Assembly: GCA_963976795.1 (NCBI GenBank)
Contig: CAXBLT010000004.1
Coordinates: forward strand, 107,939-171,938
DNA from: an uncultured Gammaproteobacteria bacterium
Lineage (GTDB): Bacteria; Pseudomonadota; Gammaproteobacteria; Eutrophobiales; Eutrophobiaceae
Direction: 5' to 3'
Length of the DNA: 64,000 nt
Position numbers and translations under genes: made by a program. Of the stretch, positions 645 to 63,499 are shown piece by piece (the stretch's first letter is position 1; each line of letters starts with the position of its first letter). The notes below the pieces were generated by a model. It did not search any database. It had not been told where the DNA came from and saw only the letters and a list, made by a program, of their open reading frames with translations.

Positions 645-1430
645 CTAATTGCCTGAAAAGATTGGTCTCTTCTTCTCAATGAAGGCGTTCACACCGGTAG
701 CGTAATCCTCCGTTTTAAAAAGTTCGGAAAATAAGCTTTGTTCCAATTTTAATCCATCTTCGATAGAGAGTTCACGCATTGCATTGATAGATATTTTTGC
801 ATTTGCAACAGCAAGTGGCGCACGTTGGGCTATTAAGGTTGCAATCTTTATTGCTTCCTCCAACAATACATCCGGCGAGTATAATTTTGATACCAAACCC
901 CATTCATAAAGCTCCTGTGCAGAATAAATATCGCCTGAAAATGTCATCATCTTTGCTCGGTGTACACCAATGCTTCGAGCTAATCGTTGTGTTCCACCAT
1001 ACCCGGGGATTAGCCCGAGGCTGACTTCGGGCAAACCGTACTTGGCTTTGTCACTCGACAGAACAAAATCGCACGCCAGAACTAACTCCATTCCACCACC
1101 TAAAGCAAAACCATTGACGCATGCGATGACAGGGATAGGTAGATGTTCTATCGCATTAAAAATTTCCTGTCCGCGGTTTGATAATATCCTGGCTTGATCA
1201 GGAGATATGTTTTGCATTTCTTTTATGTCTGCACCTGCAACGAAAGACTTTTCTCCCTCGCCAGTTACAATTAGGCAGCGTAAATTATTATCTTTGAATA
1301 TATTGTCTATAAAGTCCTTGAGCTCATTTAAGAGTTCTTTATTCAGGGCATTTAAGGCTTTTGGGCGGTTAATCTTTAATAGTCCAACGCCATCGACACA
1401 GGTTTCAAAGTTCAAGGTATTAAATGTCAT
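645..1430 (-). CDS. crt: Enoyl-CoA hydratase (crotonase)
   Basis: NRPKALNAL, FVAGADI, NGFALGGGMEL, GLPEVSLGLIPGYGGTQRL crotonase motifs. Confidence 0.9.
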   Translation of the reverse strand: MTFNTLNFETCVDGVGLLKINRPKALNALNKELLNELKDFIDNIFKDNNLRCLIVTGEGEKSFVAGADIKEMQNISPDQARILSNRGQEIFNAIEHLPIPVIACVNGFALGGGMELVLACDFVLSSDKAKYGLPEVSLGLIPGYGGTQRLARSIGVHRAKMMTFSGDIYSAQELYEWGLVSKLYSPDVLLEEAIKIATLIAQRAPLAVANAKISINAMRELSIEDGLKLEQSLFSELFKTEDYATGVNAFIEKKRPIFSGN

Positions 1431-1468
1431 TTAGACTCCTTAACGGTCGTTCCAGTAAAATGGATTTT

Positions 1469-2311
1469 TTAGTAGTTATAAAAACCACGGCCTGATTTTC
1501 GACCCAACCAGCCTGCTTCTACGTATTTAACTAATAGAGGGCAGGGCCGGTATTTGCTTTCGCCAAGTCCTTCGTGCAAAACATGCATTATTGCAAGACA
1601 TGTGTCTAAACCAATGAGGTCCGCTAATGCTAAAGGCCCCATCGGTTGGTTGGTTCCTAATTTCATAGCCTGATCGATATCTTCTTCGTTAGCAATACCT
1701 TCGCTAAGGGTAAATATTGCTTCATTAATCATAGGCATCAATATGCGGTTCACGACAAATCCAGGGCGATCATTAGCTTCAACAAAAACTTTTTCCAGGG
1801 TTTCTGTGAGTTTCCTTACTTTTTTGAAAGTATCATCAGAAGTTTGAAGACCACGAATACCTTCTACCAGTTTCATCACGGGTACGGGATTCATGAAATG
1901 CATACCACAGACTTGTTCTGGGCGTTTTGTTACTGCAGCCATTTTTGTGATAGAAATCGATGATGTGTTCGAGCAAAGCAAGGCTTCGGTTTTACAAATA
2001 TCATCTAATTGTTTGAGGATATTGAGTTTTAAGTCTACATTTTCTGTGGCTGCTTCAATTACACAATCACATTGGGCTAGATCGTTTAGTTGGGTGGTGA
2101 TTTTAATATTGTCCAGAAGTGCTGTTTTCTCCTCTGCATTCATTTTTTCTTTTTTTATGAGGCGATCACAATTTTTGCCAATGGTATTCAACGCTAAATC
2201 CAGGGCATCTTGACTAATGTCTGACAATATAATTTGGTAACCTTTTTGTGCCGCAACCTGAGCGATACCATTGCCCATTTGTCCTGCACCTACTACACCT
2301 ATTTCTTTCAT
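1469..2311 (-). CDS. hbd: 3-hydroxybutyryl-CoA dehydrogenase
   Basis: GAGQMGNGIA Rossmann motif, SNTSS, GMHFMNP, GFVVNR, PMGPL-x-LAD-x-IGLD. Confidence 0.92.
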   Translation of the reverse strand: MKEIGVVGAGQMGNGIAQVAAQKGYQIILSDISQDALDLALNTIGKNCDRLIKKEKMNAEEKTALLDNIKITTQLNDLAQCDCVIEAATENVDLKLNILKQLDDICKTEALLCSNTSSISITKMAAVTKRPEQVCGMHFMNPVPVMKLVEGIRGLQTSDDTFKKVRKLTETLEKVFVEANDRPGFVVNRILMPMINEAIFTLSEGIANEEDIDQAMKLGTNQPMGPLALADLIGLDTCLAIMHVLHEGLGESKYRPCPLLVKYVEAGWLGRKSGRGFYNY

Positions 2312-2390
2312 GGTTTTCCTGTCCTTAAATACTATTTTTATTGTGTATAAATAATGTTGGTTTTTAAATTAACTGAAAAATTACTTTTTG

Positions 2391-4058
2391 TTACATATTT
2401 CCATAATTGGGTCCACCGCCGCCTTCGGGAGTAAGCCAGGTAATGTTCTGAGCAGGATCCTTGATGTCACAAGTTTTGCAATGAATACAGTTTTGGGCAT
2501 TAATCTGAAACTTGTTTTCCCCGTTTGCCTCCTTGATAACTTCATAAACACCTGCTGGACAATAGCGTTGAGCTGGTTCGTTATAAAGAGGTAAGTTCAT
2601 TTCAATCGGAATCGCTGGGTTGTTCAATTGTAAATGGCAAGGCTGGTCTTCTTCATGATTGGTGCTCGATAAAAATACCGATGACAACTTGTCAAATGTC
2701 AACACGTTATCGGGCTTTGGATAATCAAGTTTAGAACTTTCGCTTATTGGCTTTAGCGTAGCGTGATCCGGGGTGGTGTTATGCAAGGTGAAGGGTAGTT
2801 TTCCAGATAAAATATTTTGATCAAACCATGCAAAAGCGCCACCGATAAGTGTGCCAAATTTATGCAAAGCTGGACTAAAATTACGCGTTTTATACAACTC
2901 ATCATAGACCCATGAATTACGATAGTTTTCGTTCATTGCTGTCAATTCCTTACCAGAAACATTTTCAGCTTGCATTGCCCCAAAAATTGTCTCTGCCGCA
3001 AGCATCCCGGTTTTCATTGCCGTATGATTACCTTTGATTTTGGCTCCATTCAAAAATCCTGCATTGCATCCGGCAAGTAAACCGCCTGGAAAACTTAATT
3101 TAGGGACGGATTGCATTCCACCCTTATTGACTGCGCGGGCGCCGTAAGAGATTCTCTTGCCACCCTTAAGAAAATAACTGATTTTTGGATTTAATTTCCA
3201 GCGTTGCATTTCCTCAAATGGATTCAGGTGAGGATTGCTGTAGTTTAATGCGACAATAAATCCAAGAGCGATCTGATTATTTTCCATGTGATAGAGAAAA
3301 CCGCCGCCCTCAGTTTGATTGTCTAGTGGCCAGCCAGCAGTATGCACGACCAAACCTGCTTGATGTTTTTCAGGTTCGATTGACCATACTTCTTTTACGC
3401 CCAAACCATAATGTTGTACATCGACATCTTTGCGCAGATCAAACTTTTCCATCAACTGTTTGCCAAGATGTCCACGGCAACCTTCTGTAAATACGGTTTG
3501 CTTAGCCAGTAATTCCATCCCCGGCATATAGCTATCTTTATGCTTACCTTTTTTGTCCACACCCATGTCACCAGTCAAAATACCTTTTACACTATCATCT
3601 TCGTTGTAAAGTATTTCTGCCGCTGCAAAACCAGGGAATATATCAACACCCATCGCTTCGGCTTGCTCTGCTAACCAACGACAGACATTAGCCATACTGA
3701 CAATATAATTGCCATTGTTGTGCATCGGTTTTGGGACAAGAAAAGACGGGGCTTTAATACCTTCATCTTGTGTTGTTAGATAATAGACTTCATCAGAGCT
3801 GACAGCTGTGTTTAACGGTGCACCTTTTTCTTTCCAGTCAGGAAAAAGTTCATTCATTGCCGTTGGCTCGAGTACTGCGCCAGACAAGATATGTGCTCCG
3901 ACTTCGGAGCCTTTTTCAATGACACAGACCGTTAGTTCAGTCTTATCTTTTTTCGCGAGTTGCATTAATCGACAAGCGGCTGATAATCCTGCTGGACCGG
4001 CACCTACTATAACAACATCAAACTCCATCGATTCACGTTCCATACCGGATTCCTTCAT
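2391..4058 (-). CDS. Electron transfer flavoprotein-ubiquinone oxidoreductase
   Basis: GAGPAG FAD motif, GAHILSGA, C-terminal CPAGVYE and NCIHCKTCDIKDP 4Fe-4S motif; true start may be the second Met. Confidence 0.95.
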   Translation of the reverse strand: MKESGMERESMEFDVVIVGAGPAGLSAACRLMQLAKKDKTELTVCVIEKGSEVGAHILSGAVLEPTAMNELFPDWKEKGAPLNTAVSSDEVYYLTTQDEGIKAPSFLVPKPMHNNGNYIVSMANVCRWLAEQAEAMGVDIFPGFAAAEILYNEDDSVKGILTGDMGVDKKGKHKDSYMPGMELLAKQTVFTEGCRGHLGKQLMEKFDLRKDVDVQHYGLGVKEVWSIEPEKHQAGLVVHTAGWPLDNQTEGGGFLYHMENNQIALGFIVALNYSNPHLNPFEEMQRWKLNPKISYFLKGGKRISYGARAVNKGGMQSVPKLSFPGGLLAGCNAGFLNGAKIKGNHTAMKTGMLAAETIFGAMQAENVSGKELTAMNENYRNSWVYDELYKTRNFSPALHKFGTLIGGAFAWFDQNILSGKLPFTLHNTTPDHATLKPISESSKLDYPKPDNVLTFDKLSSVFLSSTNHEEDQPCHLQLNNPAIPIEMNLPLYNEPAQRYCPAGVYEVIKEANGENKFQINAQNCIHCKTCDIKDPAQNITWLTPEGGGGPNYGNM

Positions 4059-4078
4059 AGTTTTTCGTCATGTCCGAT

Positions 4079-5023
4079 CTAGCTCAACGCTTTTTCAAGC
4101 TCAGGGATAATCTCAAACAGATCACCGACTAGACCAAAGTCAGCAATTTCAAAAATCGGAGCATCCGGATCTTTATTAATGGCAACAATCGTTCCTGCAT
4201 CTTTGATCCCTGCAAGATGTTGGATCGCGCCGGATATCCCAAAGGCCATATACAATTCGGGAGCAATGATTTTTCCAGTCTGGCCGACTTGATGGTCATT
4301 AGGAATAAACCCTGCATCAACTGCAGCACGTGATGCGCCAACTGCAGCTCCCAGTTTGTCAGCTAATGCATAGATTGTTTTAAAGTTCTCTTCGCTACCT
4401 AAGCCGCGTCCGCCAGAAACTACTTTTGTTGCCGCTTGCAGATCAGGACGATTATCGCCGCCATTTGTTTCCAATTTTACAAAACGGGTATGCGATGGTA
4501 ATTCGATATTGATTTCACGCTTTTCGATGATCGCTGACCCCGTCTTTTCTGCTTCTGGGAAAGAGGCCGTTCTAACTGTTGCGACGACGACCCCTTCAGG
4601 CACTTCAACGGTGACAATTGCATTCCCGGCGTAAATAGGGCGGTCAAATATTCTTGAGCTTTCGACGCGCATAATGTCGCTGATTTGAGGAACACCAAGC
4701 TGTGCAGCAATACGTGGTGTTAAATCTTTTCCGAATGTTGTGCTTGGTACTAGAATATGGCTGTATTCACTCGCCAGCACTTCAATCTGAGGGGCGAGGA
4801 TTGCCGCTAAGGCATGCTCATTAGCCGGGTTTTCGATCAGTAACACTGTTGTTACTCCGTTTAAAGTAGCAGCTTGTTCTGCTACGTTGCTACCATCGGC
4901 GGCAAAAATAGCAAGTTCTACTGATTCTGCGGAAAGTCCTTGGGCACATGTTACGGCACGTGCGGTTGATCCGTTTAGATGTTTGCCATCATGTTCGGCA
5001 ATGATTAATACCTTACCCATCAA
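4079..5023 (-). CDS. etfA: Electron transfer flavoprotein alpha subunit
   Basis: [35 protein letters not shown] motifs. Confidence 0.95.
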
Positions 5024-5766
5024 ATCACCCCTTTTTCTTGTAGTGCTGTAATCAACTCAGCTACAGTTTCAACTTTGATTCCCGCCTGTCTTGTGGCCGG
5101 TAAGCTTGTTTTTAATACTTTTACCGAAGCCGCTGGTTCAACACCCAGATCTGCAAGTGTGAAAGTATCGATCGGTTTTCGTTTTGCTTTCATGATATCG
5201 GGCAGTTTAACGTAGCGTGGTTCATTTAAACGTAAGTCAGTGCTGATAACGGCTGGTAGTTCGACCGCTAGCGTTTCCAGTCCAGCATCAACTTCACGAA
5301 TGACATTGGCAACATTGCCATCTATATCAATCTGGGAAGCAAAGGTTGCCTGAGGCCAATTAGCCAAGGCAGCTAACATTTGAGCCGTTTGATTATTGTC
5401 ATCATCAATCGCCTGTTTGCCGAGCATTACAATCTTCGGTTCTTCTTTCGCAATGATAGCATTTAAAATACGAGCACCAGTCAAAGGTTGAACATCTTCA
5501 TCAGTCTCGACGTGTATTGCGCGATCTGCGCCCATTGCCAGCGCGGTGCGTAATTGTTCCTGACTTGTTTTTGTACCAATAGTAATGGCTATTACTTCAT
5601 CGGCTTTACCTGCTTCTTTAAGTCGCAGTGCCTCTTCAACAGCAATTTCGTCAAATGGATTCATACTCATCTTGACACCATCAGTTGCAACGCCTGAACC
5701 GTCAGCTTTAACCTGAATGCGAACGTTGAAATCAACGACTCTTTTTACACCTACTAAAATTTTCAT
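5020..5766 (-). CDS. etfB: Electron transfer flavoprotein beta subunit
   Basis: KRVVD, MNPFDEIAVEEA, GKQAIDDD, DLRLNEPRY motifs; 4-bp overlap with etfA. Confidence 0.95.
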   Translation of the reverse strand: MKILVGVKRVVDFNVRIQVKADGSGVATDGVKMSMNPFDEIAVEEALRLKEAGKADEVIAITIGTKTSQEQLRTALAMGADRAIHVETDEDVQPLTGARILNAIIAKEEPKIVMLGKQAIDDDNNQTAQMLAALANWPQATFASQIDIDGNVANVIREVDAGLETLAVELPAVISTDLRLNEPRYVKLPDIMKAKRKPIDTFTLADLGVEPAASVKVLKTSLPATRQAGIKVETVAELITALQEKGVI

Positions 5767-5788
5767 AATTTTATTCTCTCAAAGTCTT

Positions 5789-7534
5789 TTATAGCCAATC
5801 TTCTTCAGCACTCATAACCGATTCTGAACCTGCCATAATTATCGGTGCAAGCCCATAAATTCGAGGTAAAATTTTGTTTGCAAAAAACTGTGCTGTTACT
5901 AATTTGCCTTTATAAAAATCGTCATCCTGTTTACCCAATGCAGCCTTGGCCGCTTTGACCCAGAAGTGACCATGTGTTACCAATGAATACAGGGTCAAGT
6001 ATTCAACGGCAGTAGCGGCAGGATTTTGTGGGTCTTCCTGAGCAGCTGTAGTTAACCATTCTGTTGTCTCATCAAGTAGTTTAAGTGCTGTTTTCATTGG
6101 TTCGACAATGAAGTTCAATTCATTATTGTTTGATTCTGCCGCAAGATCATTAACCATTTCTTTGATAAAGATTTGGGGAAGATTCATTTTCATTTTTCTG
6201 CCAACCAGGTCGAGTGACTGAATGGCATTGGTGCCTTCATAGATGCAAAAAATCTTGGCATCACGGATATATTGTTCCATTCCAGACTCACGAATATAGC
6301 CCGCACCACCGAGGACAAGTACACCAAGGTTAGCGACTTCACAACCCACGTCTGTAGCAAAAGCTTTACAGATCGGGGTCATTAACTCGACACGATCGTT
6401 AGCTGTTTTTCGGACTGATTCATCTGGATGTGCTTTGGACATATCGTATTGTTTAGCCGTGTCGTATGCGACCATCCGGCAACCTTCGGTGAGTGCCTTC
6501 ATTGTCATTATCATTCGTCGAACATCTGGGTGGTGAATAATCGTAGCGCCACCGTTAATGGCTGTCGCCTGCTTGCGTTCTTTTGCATATTCAATGGCTC
6601 CTTGCGTAGCGCGTTCTGCAACCCCAAGTCCTTGTAGTCCAACCATTAGACGCGCCAGGTTCATCATAGTGAACATATAACGTAATCCTTCATTGGGATT
6701 GCCCATCAGATAACCAGTTGCATTTTCAAAGTTCATGACGCAGGTAGATGAGCCATGTATTCCCATTTTTTCCTCGATGCTGGCACAAACGACCGGGTTT
6801 CTTTCTCCCAGATTTCCGTCACTATTAATCATGAATTTGGGTACCAGAAACATACTGATGCCTTTAACACCTGCGGGTGCATCAGGTAGACGAGCGAGTA
6901 CCAGATGAATTATGTTGTCAACAAAATCATGCTCTCCACCTGTGATAAAAATTTTGGTTCCCTCAATCAGGTATGTGCCGTCATTTTGGGCTATTGCCTT
7001 GGTTCTCACCTGACTTAGATCACTTCCAGCCTGTGGTTCCGTTAGACACATGGTTCCTGTCCATTCGCCGGTGGTAAGCTTTTCCAGGTAGGTTTTCTGA
7101 AGTTCCGGGCTGCCGTGCTCTATAAGTGCTTCACAAGCGCCATTAGTCAGACCCGGGTAAAGTGAGAAGGCATCATTGCCCGCACTCAACATATCAGAGA
7201 CTGCTGTTGCGAGAGTGTAGGGCAGGCCTTGACCACCAAAATCAGTCGATTTATCAAGCCCGGTCCAGCCACTTTCAGCATAGAGTTTATAAGCTTCTTT
7301 AAAACCAACAGGTGCTGATACGCTACCATTATCAAACTGGCAACCTTCACGATCTCCGGTCTCATTTAAAGGTGCAATCGTATTTTCGATAATTTTGGCT
7401 GCCTCATCAATCACACCTTGAACGATGTCTGGTGTGGCATCCTCAAACGCTGATAATTGGGCTAACTCAGAAACATTGATCACTTCATTTAATACAAACA
7501 TCATGTCTCGTTGAGGGGCTTTATATTCTGGCAC
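5789..7534 (-). CDS. Acyl-CoA dehydrogenase (about 580-aa DmdC/FadE5-like class)
   Basis: GTMCLTEP-x-AGSDL, GTKIFITGGEHD, KMGIHGS, IYEGTN; substrate not determinable. Confidence 0.9.
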   Translation of the reverse strand: MPEYKAPQRDMMFVLNEVINVSELAQLSAFEDATPDIVQGVIDEAAKIIENTIAPLNETGDREGCQFDNGSVSAPVGFKEAYKLYAESGWTGLDKSTDFGGQGLPYTLATAVSDMLSAGNDAFSLYPGLTNGACEALIEHGSPELQKTYLEKLTTGEWTGTMCLTEPQAGSDLSQVRTKAIAQNDGTYLIEGTKIFITGGEHDFVDNIIHLVLARLPDAPAGVKGISMFLVPKFMINSDGNLGERNPVVCASIEEKMGIHGSSTCVMNFENATGYLMGNPNEGLRYMFTMMNLARLMVGLQGLGVAERATQGAIEYAKERKQATAINGGATIIHHPDVRRMIMTMKALTEGCRMVAYDTAKQYDMSKAHPDESVRKTANDRVELMTPICKAFATDVGCEVANLGVLVLGGAGYIRESGMEQYIRDAKIFCIYEGTNAIQSLDLVGRKMKMNLPQIFIKEMVNDLAAESNNNELNFIVEPMKTALKLLDETTEWLTTAAQEDPQNPAATAVEYLTLYSLVTHGHFWVKAAKAALGKQDDDFYKGKLVTAQFFANKILPRIYGLAPIIMAGSESVMSAEEDWL

Positions 7535-60868: not shown

Positions 60869-61162
60869 TTATTTAATGCGATCTCGATCCAGATCTATGA
60901 TTTTACCGTTTGAATCAAACTTTATCTCAGTAATCCATTTATCAGAACTCTGAGGTGCAGGTATGAAGAACCAGCTTTTTCGTAATATATTGTGATGATA
61001 ATCAGTCTTTAGTGTTTCGTGATCTGGTGAGCCTAGCCTGTAGAGCACCTCTGCTTCTGACATCCCTTTTCTAAGCTTGATGTAATCTCGCATATCAATC
61101 GCATCAGCAGAGGCCAAAGTCCCATAAAGTAGAATTAAAGTGAGGAGGAGGAGTTTCTTCAT
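60869..61162 (-). CDS. Small exported SmpA/OmlA-like fold protein
   Basis: Signal peptide; L-x2-GMS-x2-EV-x3-LG-x-PD motif. Confidence 0.6.
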   Translation of the reverse strand: MKKLLLLTLILLYGTLASADAIDMRDYIKLRKGMSEAEVLYRLGSPDHETLKTDYHHNILRKSWFFIPAPQSSDKWITEIKFDSNGKIIDLDRDRIK

Positions 61163-61237
61163 GGTGTATTTATATTTATAAATTGCCTTTACGCCTAATA
61201 GAGTGACATTTTCCCGAGTGGTTCATTATTTCGGGAT

Positions 61238-61297
61238 AAAAAAAGGGTGCGGTTTTGAGCGCACCCAATAGTCTAAAGGGGAGGAGATAGTCTACTA
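61238..61297 (-). ncRNA. Candidate ~60-nt sigma54-dependent sRNA with anti-Shine-Dalgarno CUCCUCCCC motif
   Basis: Minus strand TAGTAGACTATCTCCTCCCCTTTAGACTATT-GGGTGCG-CTCAAAAC-CGCACCC-TTTTTTT; no ORF; sigma54 box at the expected distance. Confidence 0.7.
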
Positions 61298-61307
61298 TCT
61301 ATCCTAA

Positions 61308-61323
61308 AGCATTTGTCATGCCA
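61308..61323 (-). promoter_or_regulatory. Sigma54 (-24/-12) promoter of the candidate sRNA
   Basis: TGGCATGACAAATGCT with GG-N10-GC spacing; IHF-like box at 61344-61359. Confidence 0.65.
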
Positions 61324-61381
61324 TTTACGACATACTTTCATACAAAACAATGATTTATGAATATTATTGGCGTTTATCCCT

Positions 61382-61410
61382 TTGACTCACGTACATTAAT
61401 TTAGTATACT
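61382..61410 (+). promoter_or_regulatory. Sigma70-like transposase promoter with -35 inside the left TIR
   Basis: TTGACT-N17-TATACT. Confidence 0.7.
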
Positions 61411-61446
61411 GGTTATACATTAACTAGAACAAGGTTGAACTAAACA

Positions 61447-62310
61447 ATGGATGTACTTAATTTCTTTAAAGAATTTTCTGATGATGATAAGTGTTTACAT
61501 CATCTTATGGTCACTCGCTTCGGTGAAATCCTAGATTGCCCTAAATGTGGCAAAAATGGGAAGTTTCACAGGGTAAAGAGTCGTCCTGTCTACTCTTGCC
61601 AGTTCTGCCGTCACCAGATCAGCCCAATGAAAGACACGCCTTTTGAGCGATCTCGTACTCCTTTGCAGAAGTGGTTCTATGCTATGTATCTTTTCACTAC
61701 TTCCCGTCACGGCGTACCCGCTAAGGAACTACAACGCCAACTCTCTGTTACCTATAAAACAGCTTGGAGAATGGGGCATGAAATCCGAAAATACATGGCT
61801 GATGTAGATGGTGATTCCAATATGTCAGGTCATATTGAAGTCGATGAGTCTTTTCATGGTGGAAGAAGCGACAAAGCAGGCTTTCCTATTGAAAAGACAG
61901 CCGTATTCGGCATGATCCAACGTAATGGTGACGTTATAACTAAAGTCATTCCAAGACGAGCAAATGTACATATTCGCCCATTAATTAAACAGTACATTGA
62001 TAAAGGCGCGACTGTTAGCTCTGACGAATGGGGCGGTTATCGTAAACTTAAAGAGCTTGGTTACAATCACGGTATGGTTAATCATAGCCGCGAACAATGG
62101 AAAAACGGCGTTCATCATACCAATTCAATAGAAGGTTACTGGTCACGTATTAAGAACTCTATTCGTGGTACACATGTACATGTATCAGGTAAACATCTAC
62201 AAAAATATCTAGGTGAGTTCGAGTATCGCTACAATATGAGAGCTAATCCTTCTTTGATGTTTGATCTTCTTTTAAGGGCTTTTGCGTCATGCGGGACAAG
62301 AGCGAGTTAA
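61447..62310 (+). CDS. IS1595 family transposase
   Basis: Zn ribbon CPKC...CQFC, HTH region (KTAWRM), IEVDE, SDE, HTNSIEG-x-WS, HLQKYL-x-EFEYRYN. Confidence 0.93.
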   Translation: MDVLNFFKEFSDDDKCLHHLMVTRFGEILDCPKCGKNGKFHRVKSRPVYSCQFCRHQISPMKDTPFERSRTPLQKWFYAMYLFTTSRHGVPAKELQRQLSVTYKTAWRMGHEIRKYMADVDGDSNMSGHIEVDESFHGGRSDKAGFPIEKTAVFGMIQRNGDVITKVIPRRANVHIRPLIKQYIDKGATVSSDEWGGYRKLKELGYNHGMVNHSREQWKNGVHHTNSIEGYWSRIKNSIRGTHVHVSGKHLQKYLGEFEYRYNMRANPSLMFDLLLRAFASCGTRAS

Positions 62311-62410
62311 ACTTCTTCTTGCTTCCTTTAGTAGGATGTTGCTCTGCAAACTCTTTTAATTTGCCCTGTTTACGCGCTTCCTCAAGACTTAAATATTTGC
62401 CAGTAGACAT
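62243..62410 (-). CDS. Small basic IS passenger protein (55 aa), absent from the ORF track
   Basis: Manually translated MSTGKYLSLEEARKQGKLKEFAEQHPTKGSKKKFNSLLSRMTQKPLKEDQTSKKD; starts 2 bp after the upstream stop and overlaps the transposase 3' end on the opposite strand. Confidence 0.6.
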   Translation of the reverse strand: MSTGKYLSLEEARKQGKLKEFAEQHPTKGSKKKFNSLLSRMTQKPLKEDQTSKKD

Positions 62411-62412
62411 GA

Positions 62413-62889
62413 TTATTTTTTATTCATTAATTCATTTAACCCAACAAGTTTATTTATTGAGCCTTCTAAAATTACAATATTTTTATTTGTCTCTACGTTT
62501 TGCCTAGAAATAGATTCAAGTTCATTATTAATTTTATTAACATCATTCGTTATAGATATATTTAATACATCAAATTTATCATCCAATTCCTTTGATTCGT
62601 TTCCAATATGAACATATAAGCCAAGTAAACCCAATAAAATAGTGATGGCTACGCCTATACCTATATTCCTCATATCTCTAACATCGTCTTTAATAGACGT
62701 AATATCACCAAGTATATGCTCTACTCTAGTCTCTAAAACGGTCACTCTCTTGTCCAAATCCCCGCTTCCTCCTCCGCCTGTTGAACCCAAATTAGTGGGC
62801 GGATTCCAGTTACCCCCACTACCATGAATCTGAGTTACAGGAGAATAGTTACTACCTGCTCCTGTAGAATCTACATCAGGATTTGTCAT
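62413..62889 (-). CDS. IS passenger: single-TM coiled-coil protein (XhlA-like architecture)
   Basis: Gly-rich GGGGSGD followed by RV-x2-LE-x2-V-x-HI coiled coil, TM helix, second coiled coil. Confidence 0.7.
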   Translation of the reverse strand: MTNPDVDSTGAGSNYSPVTQIHGSGGNWNPPTNLGSTGGGGSGDLDKRVTVLETRVEHILGDITSIKDDVRDMRNIGIGVAITILLGLLGLYVHIGNESKELDDKFDVLNISITNDVNKINNELESISRQNVETNKNIVILEGSINKLVGLNELMNKK

Positions 62890-62890
62890 C

Positions 62891-63295
62891 TTAATTATCC
62901 TCGTCCTTAATCTCTGTAGCAGGGTAAGTACGATTTAATAAATCCCTAAGCTGAATTAGCGCACCATGAGGCATTGTTATTCTGGCTTTATTCTCTCTAA
63001 ACGACTCGGTATCATCTAGTTCAACAGTTGTTTGATAGCCAGCCAATACGCCGCCTTCATGCTCTTTAACATCGCCATCAACAAGCCTTGCCGTTTCACT
63101 AATAATTCCCACAACATCAGCATAAAAAATAATATGGTGCATACCGTCGCCAGTTGGGCCGGTTACAATAGCATTTGTAGCAAAATGACTAGCAAAATGC
63201 GGTGCTCGATGATGCGGTATTTTCATTTCTTTTGGAACTTCGCCATCGTCTGGCATTTTGCTCCTAACTGACGGCCTCTTATCTTTCTCTCCCAT
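62891..63295 (-). CDS. IS passenger: hypothetical soluble protein
   Basis: 134-aa ORF with AAGGGG RBS; first gene of a tightly spaced antisense cassette. Confidence 0.7.
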   Translation of the reverse strand: MGEKDKRPSVRSKMPDDGEVPKEMKIPHHRAPHFASHFATNAIVTGPTGDGMHHIIFYADVVGIISETARLVDGDVKEHEGGVLAGYQTTVELDDTESFRENKARITMPHGALIQLRDLLNRTYPATEIKDEDN

Positions 63296-63499
63296 TGAAA
63301 CGCCCCTTATAAAAACTCAGGCTAATTATACATATTTGAGTATACATATGGCTAAAATTAACTACGTGGCTCAACGGGATAATCGCCATATTATTTAATG
63401 TATTATATATTCAGTAACCATAGCAAAATATGAACAAAGAGCCAAAAACGCCGTTTTTTGACTACAAAAACGGAGCTTAATTAAGTGGAAAAGAAAGAA

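Follow-up and report, generated by a model that had tools for sequence, protein, structure and literature searches.

A conserved sigma-54-type small-RNA gene with a predicted anti-Shine-Dalgarno-like loop in a mostly uncultured family of marine Gammaproteobacteria

What occupies the intergenic DNA behind folE2 in an uncultured gammaproteobacterium of the family Eutrophobiaceae, and, if it is a gene, what could its product do? The DNA in question belongs to a stretch of 64,000 nucleotides (nt) (GenBank assembly GCA_963976795.1, contig CAXBLT010000004.1, positions 107,939 to 171,938 of the forward strand), which we refer to as the window. An earlier note, made from the letters of the window, had pointed to an unannotated small RNA (sRNA) of about 60 nt on its minus strand, transcribed from a sigma-54-type promoter and exposing a loop that resembles an anti-Shine-Dalgarno sequence. 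Comparative data strongly back this description. Judging from the sequence comparisons, we regard a real, conserved sigma-54-type sRNA gene as highly probable, and we give somewhat better than even chances to the full reading, in which the RNA would act in trans by anti-Shine-Dalgarno-type repression of translation.

All coordinates given for the unit are window positions on the minus strand. The sigma-54-type promoter, TGGCATGACAAATGCT (61323-61308), recognised by pattern and from homologues, places a GG and a GC 10 nt apart, which is the spacing of the -24 and -12 elements. About 11 nt separate it from the predicted RNA, whose transcription would start near 61297 if the usual sigma-54 geometry is applied to the GC element. 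An A/T-rich box, AATCATTGTTTT (61355-61344), precedes the promoter by about 20 nt and is a possible site for integration host factor (IHF) or another DNA-bending protein. The predicted RNA (61238-61297, about 60 nt) consists of a 5' hairpin with a CU-rich loop, a terminator hairpin and a U7 tail. Its seed, TATCTCCTCCCC (61278-61289), is defined by invariance among relatives and predicted accessibility, and the core of the seed, CTCCTCCCC (61286-61278), stands between the two copies of a direct repeat, AGACTAT (61293-61287 and 61274-61268). The terminator scan identified an intrinsic terminator with a 7-bp stem, GGGTGCG-N8-CGCACCC (61266-61245, six of the seven pairs being G-C), followed directly by T7 (61244-61238). 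Each part of this layout that the earlier note had listed, from the A/T-rich box and the promoter through the spacer and the repeat-flanked core to the stem and the T-run, was found where it had been placed. The unit had also been called free of open reading frames (ORFs). This holds for conserved ORFs, none of which appeared in the ORF list or in the alignment of relatives, but locally a single 30-amino-acid (aa) ORF with a TTG start (61176-61268) overlaps the unit; its start is lost in relatives.

Folding of the 60-61 nt unit gave a predicted energy of -15.9 kcal/mol (z = -3.97), and none of 200 shuffled sequences was as stable. The C-rich stretch falls within the loop of hairpin 1, and the seed has a predicted unpaired probability of 0.92.

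Could such an arrangement be no gene at all, with promoter-like and terminator-like motifs coinciding by chance in an intergenic region? The sigma-54 pattern alone occurs in the window at chance level (one match, with 0.57 expected per window, and at least one match in 47 of 100 shuffles), while the terminator scan of the window returned one match against 0.3 expected. The excess over chance lies in the combination, because promoter, seed and terminator recur jointly, in the same order and spacing, in relatives of several genera. They are kept together across at least nine genera at one syntenic site, and the surrounding DNA diverges. We consider a mere coincidence of motifs very improbable.

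Within its own genome of 2.77 Mb the unit is single-copy. BLAST searches against 126 genomes of the family returned same-genus matches that span promoter to T-run at 73-85% identity, and shorter matches in other genera that cover the seed and the terminator. A covariance model (R1) built from an alignment of 14 homologues detected the unit at E <= 0.01 in 32 of the 126 family genomes, among them 17/22 of the same genus, and in 10/34 genera; at E <= 0.001 the number of genomes was 27. The order contains only this family, and the order-level search with R1 covered the same 126 genomes. Gene order was the same in 27/30 fetched loci, where folE2 is followed by the RNA, by the gene of a secreted 97-aa protein, by mazG, which runs on the other strand, and by an HNH gene. 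The three loci that lack this synteny (G107, G088 and G124) are probably false matches.

The alignment of 14 homologues shows no change in TCTCCTCCCC or in most of the terminator stem; the promoter GG/GC and the ATTGTTTT core of the A/T-rich box are kept, and flanks and intervening sequence drift. In the 14 homologues measured, 19-27 nt separate GG-N10-GC from the seed downstream of it. The earlier note had let its proposal depend on conservation of seed and promoter in relatives, and this conservation is present, both in the R1 matches and in the strict sigma-54 pattern that precedes 22 of the 24 seeds found by the seed pattern. At two loci, L058 of genome G063 and L049 of G100 (which reads TGGTGT), RNA and terminator are kept next to a damaged -24 element (about 1440-1500 of the oriented loci), which hints that in some lineages the promoter has decayed or changed its class. 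Three weaker syntenic R1 matches keep promoter and terminator and carry variant CU-rich loops (UUCCUUCCUCCUCUU in G114, UUUCCCCCUCCUU in G123 and UUCCCCCCCUCCUU in G120); a stronger match (50.9 bits) in G010 also has a variant loop, UUUCCUCCCCCCCC. Since these divergent loops still keep CCUCC, CCUCC within a pyrimidine run emerges as the universal core.

An exact-pattern scan of one genome per species (185,579 species) yielded 19 loci, 18 of which belong to metagenome-assembled genomes (MAGs) titled Gammaproteobacteria, Proteobacteria, Pseudomonadota, Thiotrichaceae or Enterobacteriaceae, the last title probably being a mislabel. We rejected the remaining locus, from Dehalococcoidia, as an apparent chance match, since it has neither the promoter nor a proper T-run. 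In the largest genus of the family without the RNA (g20), folE2 is absent from 12 of the 13 genomes searched, and the single genome that has folE2 carries no RNA behind it. The DNA described here is contained in 18 sequencing runs from marine or biofilm metagenomes, five of them RNA runs at a share of at most 0.07 each.

Is the loop presented in the same way in the relatives? For 24 homologues, each folded between its inferred transcription start and the last U of its terminal run (G068, G017 and G063 were dropped, as the terminator pattern missed them), the predicted lengths were 50-68 nt and the mean unpaired probability of the seed had a median of 0.915 (range 0.60-1.0). The AGACTAT repeat is peculiar to this genome, and hairpin 1 of the relatives is built from other sequences. 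Its stem differs by clade (GUAGU/ACUAC, ACUAUA/UAUAGU, AUAUCUC/GAGAUAU or GCAAG/CUUGC), and the loop stays CU-rich and unpaired. The recurrence of a hairpin 1 that is each time built differently is soft evidence, from predicted folds and short of a formal covariation test, that presentation of the loop is under selection. RNAalifold recovered the terminator only, with seven pairs, two of which show compensatory changes. We propose that the RNA would fold into two hairpins, the first displaying a single-stranded CU-rich UAUCUCCUCCCC that resembles the 3' end of 16S rRNA.

The regular company of the 97-aa gene raises another possibility, that the RNA is a cis-acting leader. The sigma-54 promoter would then serve the 97-aa gene, the hairpin and U-run would work as a conditional attenuator, and the short RNA would be a by-product. 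In favour of this, RNA and small ORF are read from one strand with 75 nt between them, 26 of the 27 syntenic loci contain the pair, and neither the window sequence nor the alignment shows an evident Shine-Dalgarno sequence for the ORF. No conserved antiterminator pairing was seen, however, and the CCCGA/TCGGG hairpin that follows the terminator in this genome is not shared by relatives. The 14-sequence alignment also reveals a separate conserved promoter-like element, TGAACC-N17-TCTAT (61198-61225, minus strand), between the sRNA terminator and the ORF, which we take to be similar to the ECF/sigma-E-type promoter consensus. Moreover, in G120 the small ORF is missing and the RNA still stands between folE2 and mazG, and the most conserved part of the RNA is an unpaired loop, not a switch. 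We hold a cis-acting leader to be unlikely and treat the 97-aa gene simply as a syntenic neighbour on the downstream side. The protein encoded by this gene (60869-61162, minus strand) matches DUF3862 weakly (E = 0.007, which misses the cut-off). Codons 4-8 of the gene read CUCCUCCUCC, oriented like the sRNA loop, and relatives keep part of this stretch. On the other side, folE2 has a terminator-like hairpin of its own, CCGTTTTT-N6-AAAAAACGG (63451-63472, minus strand), which is kept in close relatives and sets folE2 transcription apart from that of the sRNA.

For an independent sRNA gene of this kind, an enhancer-binding activator would be needed because the promoter is of the sigma-54 type. 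Relatives of the same genus carry GTCAAA-N3-TTGCCG 86-94 nt upstream of the promoter, and the closest of them read TTGCCAATATTTTGCCA. With the ATTGTTTT box between this site and the promoter, the arrangement corresponds to the classic sigma-54 order of enhancer, bend and promoter. In its exact form the site is also nearly unique per genome: 5/7 exact matches in five genomes fall at this locus, and a reversed control gave three matches. Transcription would accordingly be expected to start at the sigma-54 promoter under an activator bound at the conserved site about 110 nt upstream, probably with help from a DNA-bending protein at the A/T-rich box, and to end at the strong intrinsic terminator.

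In the genome studied here, this control region has been interrupted. Homology with relatives, followed from folE2, stops at about 63420 and is taken up again near 61327; the gap measures about 2.1 kb here, against about 65 nt in relatives. Inverted repeats, Pfam matches and the gap in the relatives identify an insertion sequence (IS) of the IS1595 family, 2,021 bp long (61368-63388). Its inverted repeats of 37 nt (61368-61404 and 63352-63388) are 78% complementary, and TATTAT stands on both flanks (61362-61367 and 63389-63394). The transposase (61447-62310, plus strand) is of the ISXO2-like DDE type (Pfam DDE_Tnp_IS1595, 2.6e-39, and IS1595 zinc ribbon). The minus strand, against the direction of the transposase, carries three small passenger ORFs (62243-62410, 62413-62889 and 62891-63295), none of which gave a significant Pfam match; in the product of 158 aa, the N-terminal part is rich in glycine and a hydrophobic segment is predicted. 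The genome holds one copy of the element.

Beyond the insertion, comparison with relatives locates a degenerate counterpart of the enhancer-like site, TTGTTCATATTTTGCTA (63421-63437, minus strand). Displaced by the IS to about 2 kb from the promoter, it is the most degenerate of the 13 sites compared and scores 5.4 by weight matrix, against 15-25 for most of them. Induction is likely weakened here by the insertion, and the gene may be poorly inducible or silent in this genome. Taken to its end, this leads to the reading of a silenced relic, in which the IS has uncoupled promoter and enhancer in this genome while the family remains functional elsewhere. The 2,021 bp that now separate the enhancer-like site from the bending box and promoter, together with the degeneracy of that site, fit a relic. 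Yet the RNA, the core promoter and the A/T-rich box are intact despite the IS, and the fold still exposes the loop. Sigma-54 activators can, moreover, act from distances of kilobases, although less efficiently, and the insertion may be recent, because there is one copy of the element and both its end repeats and the duplication at its flanks can still be made out. We rate a local relic as a possibility to be taken seriously, though clearly the less probable outcome.

Which protein could activate an intact promoter of this type? The genome encodes rpoN (Sigma54_DBD, E = 2.5e-69, in a 492-aa frame), and hfq and an ihfA-like gene as well. Ten strong sigma-54 activators were found: a true NtrC (the sole one above the NCBIfam equivalog cut-off), an NtrX-like and a GlrR-like protein, and seven others. 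The latter comprise two proteins of 454 and 476 aa, encoded close together on contig C8 and likely of the FleQ/FleR type (a guess from their adjacency and nearest families), two of 666-669 aa that are without a receiver-domain match and score best on the PrdR and DhaR models, and three further activators. The upstream site contains no evident motif of the NtrC kind. The GlrR-like activator was considered and rejected, as it occurs in 24/34 genera, including sRNA-less ones, and was not found in the sRNA-positive genomes G111 (96% complete) and G115 (85% complete). Its gene, outside the window, stands between glmS and a gene for a hybrid histidine kinase, in a row of four on one strand that also includes a gene for a Sel1-repeat protein (G000:C1:231235-237970; 736-7471 of locus L200). 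The position beside glmS recalls the GlrR-GlmY-glmS circuit of enterobacteria; the start region of glmS holds no G-rich complementary site.

As for its action, the loop of the sRNA would pair with purine-rich Shine-Dalgarno regions (GGAGG with flanking G/A) of a set of mRNAs and thereby block ribosomes, probably assisted by the genome-encoded Hfq. Specificity must come from the flanks, because every strong Shine-Dalgarno sequence is complementary to CCUCC. Among plausible start sites of this genome, the longest complements were found at fae (GGAGGAGAUA, 10 nt), a rubrerythrin-like gene (GGAGGAGAU), an integron-integrase-like gene, glnA (GGGAGAUA) and a gene for a DUF1302-like outer-membrane protein (GGGGAGGA). 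At the starts of fae, glnA and the rubrerythrin gene the complements measure 7-10 nt. Genome-wide duplex scans were dominated by matches within ORFs that code for GGDEF/GGEEF and by artefacts of the 5' stem. Among the gene starts of the window, no plausible one has a specific complement of at least 8 nt; porin, icmF and pqqA, which the earlier note had put forward as candidate targets, have only generic GGAG-type sites and do not stand out.

Two of the candidates deserve a remark of their own. The gene fae (G000:C1:130224-130733; orthologues in L134-L163), present in 105/126 family genomes, has an unusually long, highly conserved ribosome-binding region, UGGAGGAGA, in 26 of the 30 family genomes examined. 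At E <= 1e-60, 13/22 same-genus genomes and all five genomes of genus g25 gave no match to the glnA type present here, so another glutamine synthetase type is possible there.

Several findings weigh against the full reading, in addition to the chance-level frequency of the promoter pattern and to the displaced, degenerate enhancer-like site. At the promoter, G063 is without the -24 GG and G100 has a weakened -24 element. Hairpin 1 shows no covariation in a fixed alignment register, and RNAalifold misses it because the register shifts between clades. A whole-genome search with a weight matrix of 13 upstream sites found no second pair of enhancer and sigma-54 promoter, and the distribution of the GlrR-like candidate does not follow that of the RNA. 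With regard to targets, complementarity does not track the RNA, because the fae and glnA sites also occur in sRNA-negative relatives: the fae site GGAGGAGA is present in 18/19 sRNA-positive but also in 8/11 sRNA-negative loci, and the glnA site GGAGAUA in 8 of the 11 starts found, two of these in sRNA-negative genomes. GGAGAUA is not enriched either, ranking 13th among GGAG-plus-three-letter endings (16 occurrences versus 50 for the commonest). The 9-mer complement of the seed, GGGAGGAGA, searched in five diverse sRNA-positive genomes, gave no shared mRNA site and was met only in probable 23S rRNA, on the antisense strand of the RNA itself and at scattered sites. Finally, metatranscriptome contigs from four runs, after filtering, contained none on the sRNA, which is uninformative on expression either way; four pieces from 2/4 runs, derived from relatives and about 90% alike, cover no more than the small ORF (60915-61164), and the other two runs gave nothing.

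As a separate observation, GGGAGGAGA, a perfect 9-nt match to the RNA loop, stands in an identical 45-nt context in three relatives (L102, L122 and L106). We take this context to be 23S rRNA, and the match is probably irrelevant to function.

The missing specific, conserved mRNA target leaves room for a real RNA that binds something other than ribosome-binding sites, be it by titrating a protein that binds CU-rich RNA, by competing for Hfq, or as a sponge for G-rich RNA. Such a role would also accommodate the terminator stem GGGUGC/GCACCC, which is conserved beyond what termination needs, and other sigma-54-driven RNAs (GlmY and CrcZ) are described as decoys. The RNA is, however, without GGA or A-rich repeats of the kind typical of CsrA- and Hfq-titrating RNAs, and the CCUCC that is kept universally is exactly the anti-Shine-Dalgarno core. 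A decoy or sponge seems improbable to us, to about the same degree as a cis-acting leader, and pairing with ribosome-binding sites in trans remains our preferred reading.

Does the RNA belong to a known family? Searches of the whole window against Rfam at gathering thresholds reached no family, so that no family claims the unit, in line with the earlier view of an unannotated sRNA gene. A permissive search (E <= 10, 61100-61500) gave five matches, the best to suhB/MmgR (RF00519) at 21.6 bits and E = 0.029, over model positions 1-77. The suhB/MmgR resemblance suspected in the earlier note thus reappears as an Rfam match, but one that is below the gathering threshold of 41 bits. A likeness to the 'toxic' sRNAs, suggested there too, extends to the layout and not to the Rfam model, as RF02278 gave no match even at E <= 10. 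Neither mode produced a match to Qrr, GlmY/GlmZ or CrcZ.

MmgR is the functionally closest known RNA. It is described as an RNA of 77 nt with three stem-loops, the first of which shows an anti-Shine-Dalgarno motif in its loop; it ends at an intrinsic terminator, depends on Hfq, is induced by NtrC and has RpoD and RpoN promoter motifs listed for it (PMC7143759). Over its full length, the Rfam model of this RNA (MmgR/alpha-r8, from Sinorhizobium and further alpha-rhizobia) can be aligned with ours through UCCUCCC, AGACU and the terminator, and the anti-Shine-Dalgarno loop as such is shared. In contrast, two stem-loops instead of three are predicted here and in the homologues, hairpin 1 of the model is reduced to 3 nt in the alignment, and MmgR hosts are alphaproteobacterial, whereas this RNA is gammaproteobacterial. 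As an explanation of the resemblance, convergence is at least as likely as homology, which is unproven.

The cuckoo RNAs (among them CcsR/RSs0680, NfeR1/alpha-r14 and SmelA075) show CCUCCUCCC in hairpin loops as an anti-Shine-Dalgarno motif on stems that vary freely between lineages, with two to four adjacent motif-bearing hairpins; they were found in 78 alphaproteobacteria, and the founders of Rhodobacter sphaeroides have an RpoHI/HII promoter and are co-transcribed with the upstream gene (PMC4615179). Eight of nine letters of CCUCCUCCC agree in register with the loop CUCCUCCC. Unlike the cuckoo RNAs, the present RNA has one CU-loop hairpin (CUCCUCCCC) and no motif in the terminator loop, has a sigma-54 promoter and stands alone. 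The 'toxic' sRNAs of Burkholderia are double hairpins of 57-67 nt with CU-rich unpaired stretches and three to five copies per genome (PMC5688073). Size and two-hairpin layout are shared with these RNAs (RF02278; ncS03/05/27/62 of Burkholderia cenocepacia), but they are multicopy, whereas ours is single-copy, and the term sigma-54 is absent from PMC5688073.

With regard to its control, the locus can be compared with LuxO-Qrr of Vibrio, GlrR-GlmY of enterobacteria and CbrB-CrcZ of Pseudomonas, in each of which an activator of the response-regulator type drives an sRNA gene through a sigma-54 promoter. The LuxO enhancer site is reportedly nearly unique to sRNA loci, and the enhancer-like site described here is likewise nearly unique to the sRNA locus. 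LuxO and RpoN are reported to be required for Qrr1-5, GlmY is described as a decoy sRNA and CrcZ as an RNA regulating Hfq. The present RNA is smaller than these and has another seed. It does share traits with two general classes, namely a conserved GG-N10-GC in a genome with rpoN with sigma-54-dependent genes, and a promoter of its own, an intrinsic terminator with a U-tail and a conserved, predictedly single-stranded seed with Hfq-type trans-acting sRNAs. In our reading of the sequence comparisons, it would represent a new family of sigma-54-dependent sRNAs of known design, which lacks the defining features of the MmgR, cuckoo and 'toxic' families. In searches of the literature on sigma-54 and anti-Shine-Dalgarno sRNAs and on the CCUCCUCCC motif, supplements aside, we found neither this RNA nor a gammaproteobacterial counterpart.

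By analogy, one may go further and imagine a LuxO-Qrr-like module of marine C1-utilising Gammaproteobacteria, in which a dedicated activator, with this locus as its only strong binding site, would switch on a 60-nt mimic of the 16S anti-Shine-Dalgarno tail that outcompetes ribosomes at strong GGAGGAGAUA-type sites such as those of fae (formaldehyde-activating enzyme) and glnA (glutamine synthetase), and would thus tie some signal to a global throttling of C1 and nitrogen assimilation. We put this forward as a speculative extension that is unlikely to hold as a whole.

Taken more soberly, what the locus probably offers is an independent sRNA gene of about 60 nt, found in one mostly uncultured marine gammaproteobacterial family, for which it would be the first post-transcriptional regulator with a clear promoter class. 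It would add a case of a tiny two-hairpin RNA with an anti-Shine-Dalgarno loop outside the Alpha- and Betaproteobacteria, wired to sigma-54. The cognate activator and its signal should be experimentally tractable because the enhancer-like site is nearly unique, and the IS insertion provides a natural experiment on the distance between enhancer and promoter in sigma-54 control. The covariance model R1 could seed an Rfam family and improve the annotation of MAGs.

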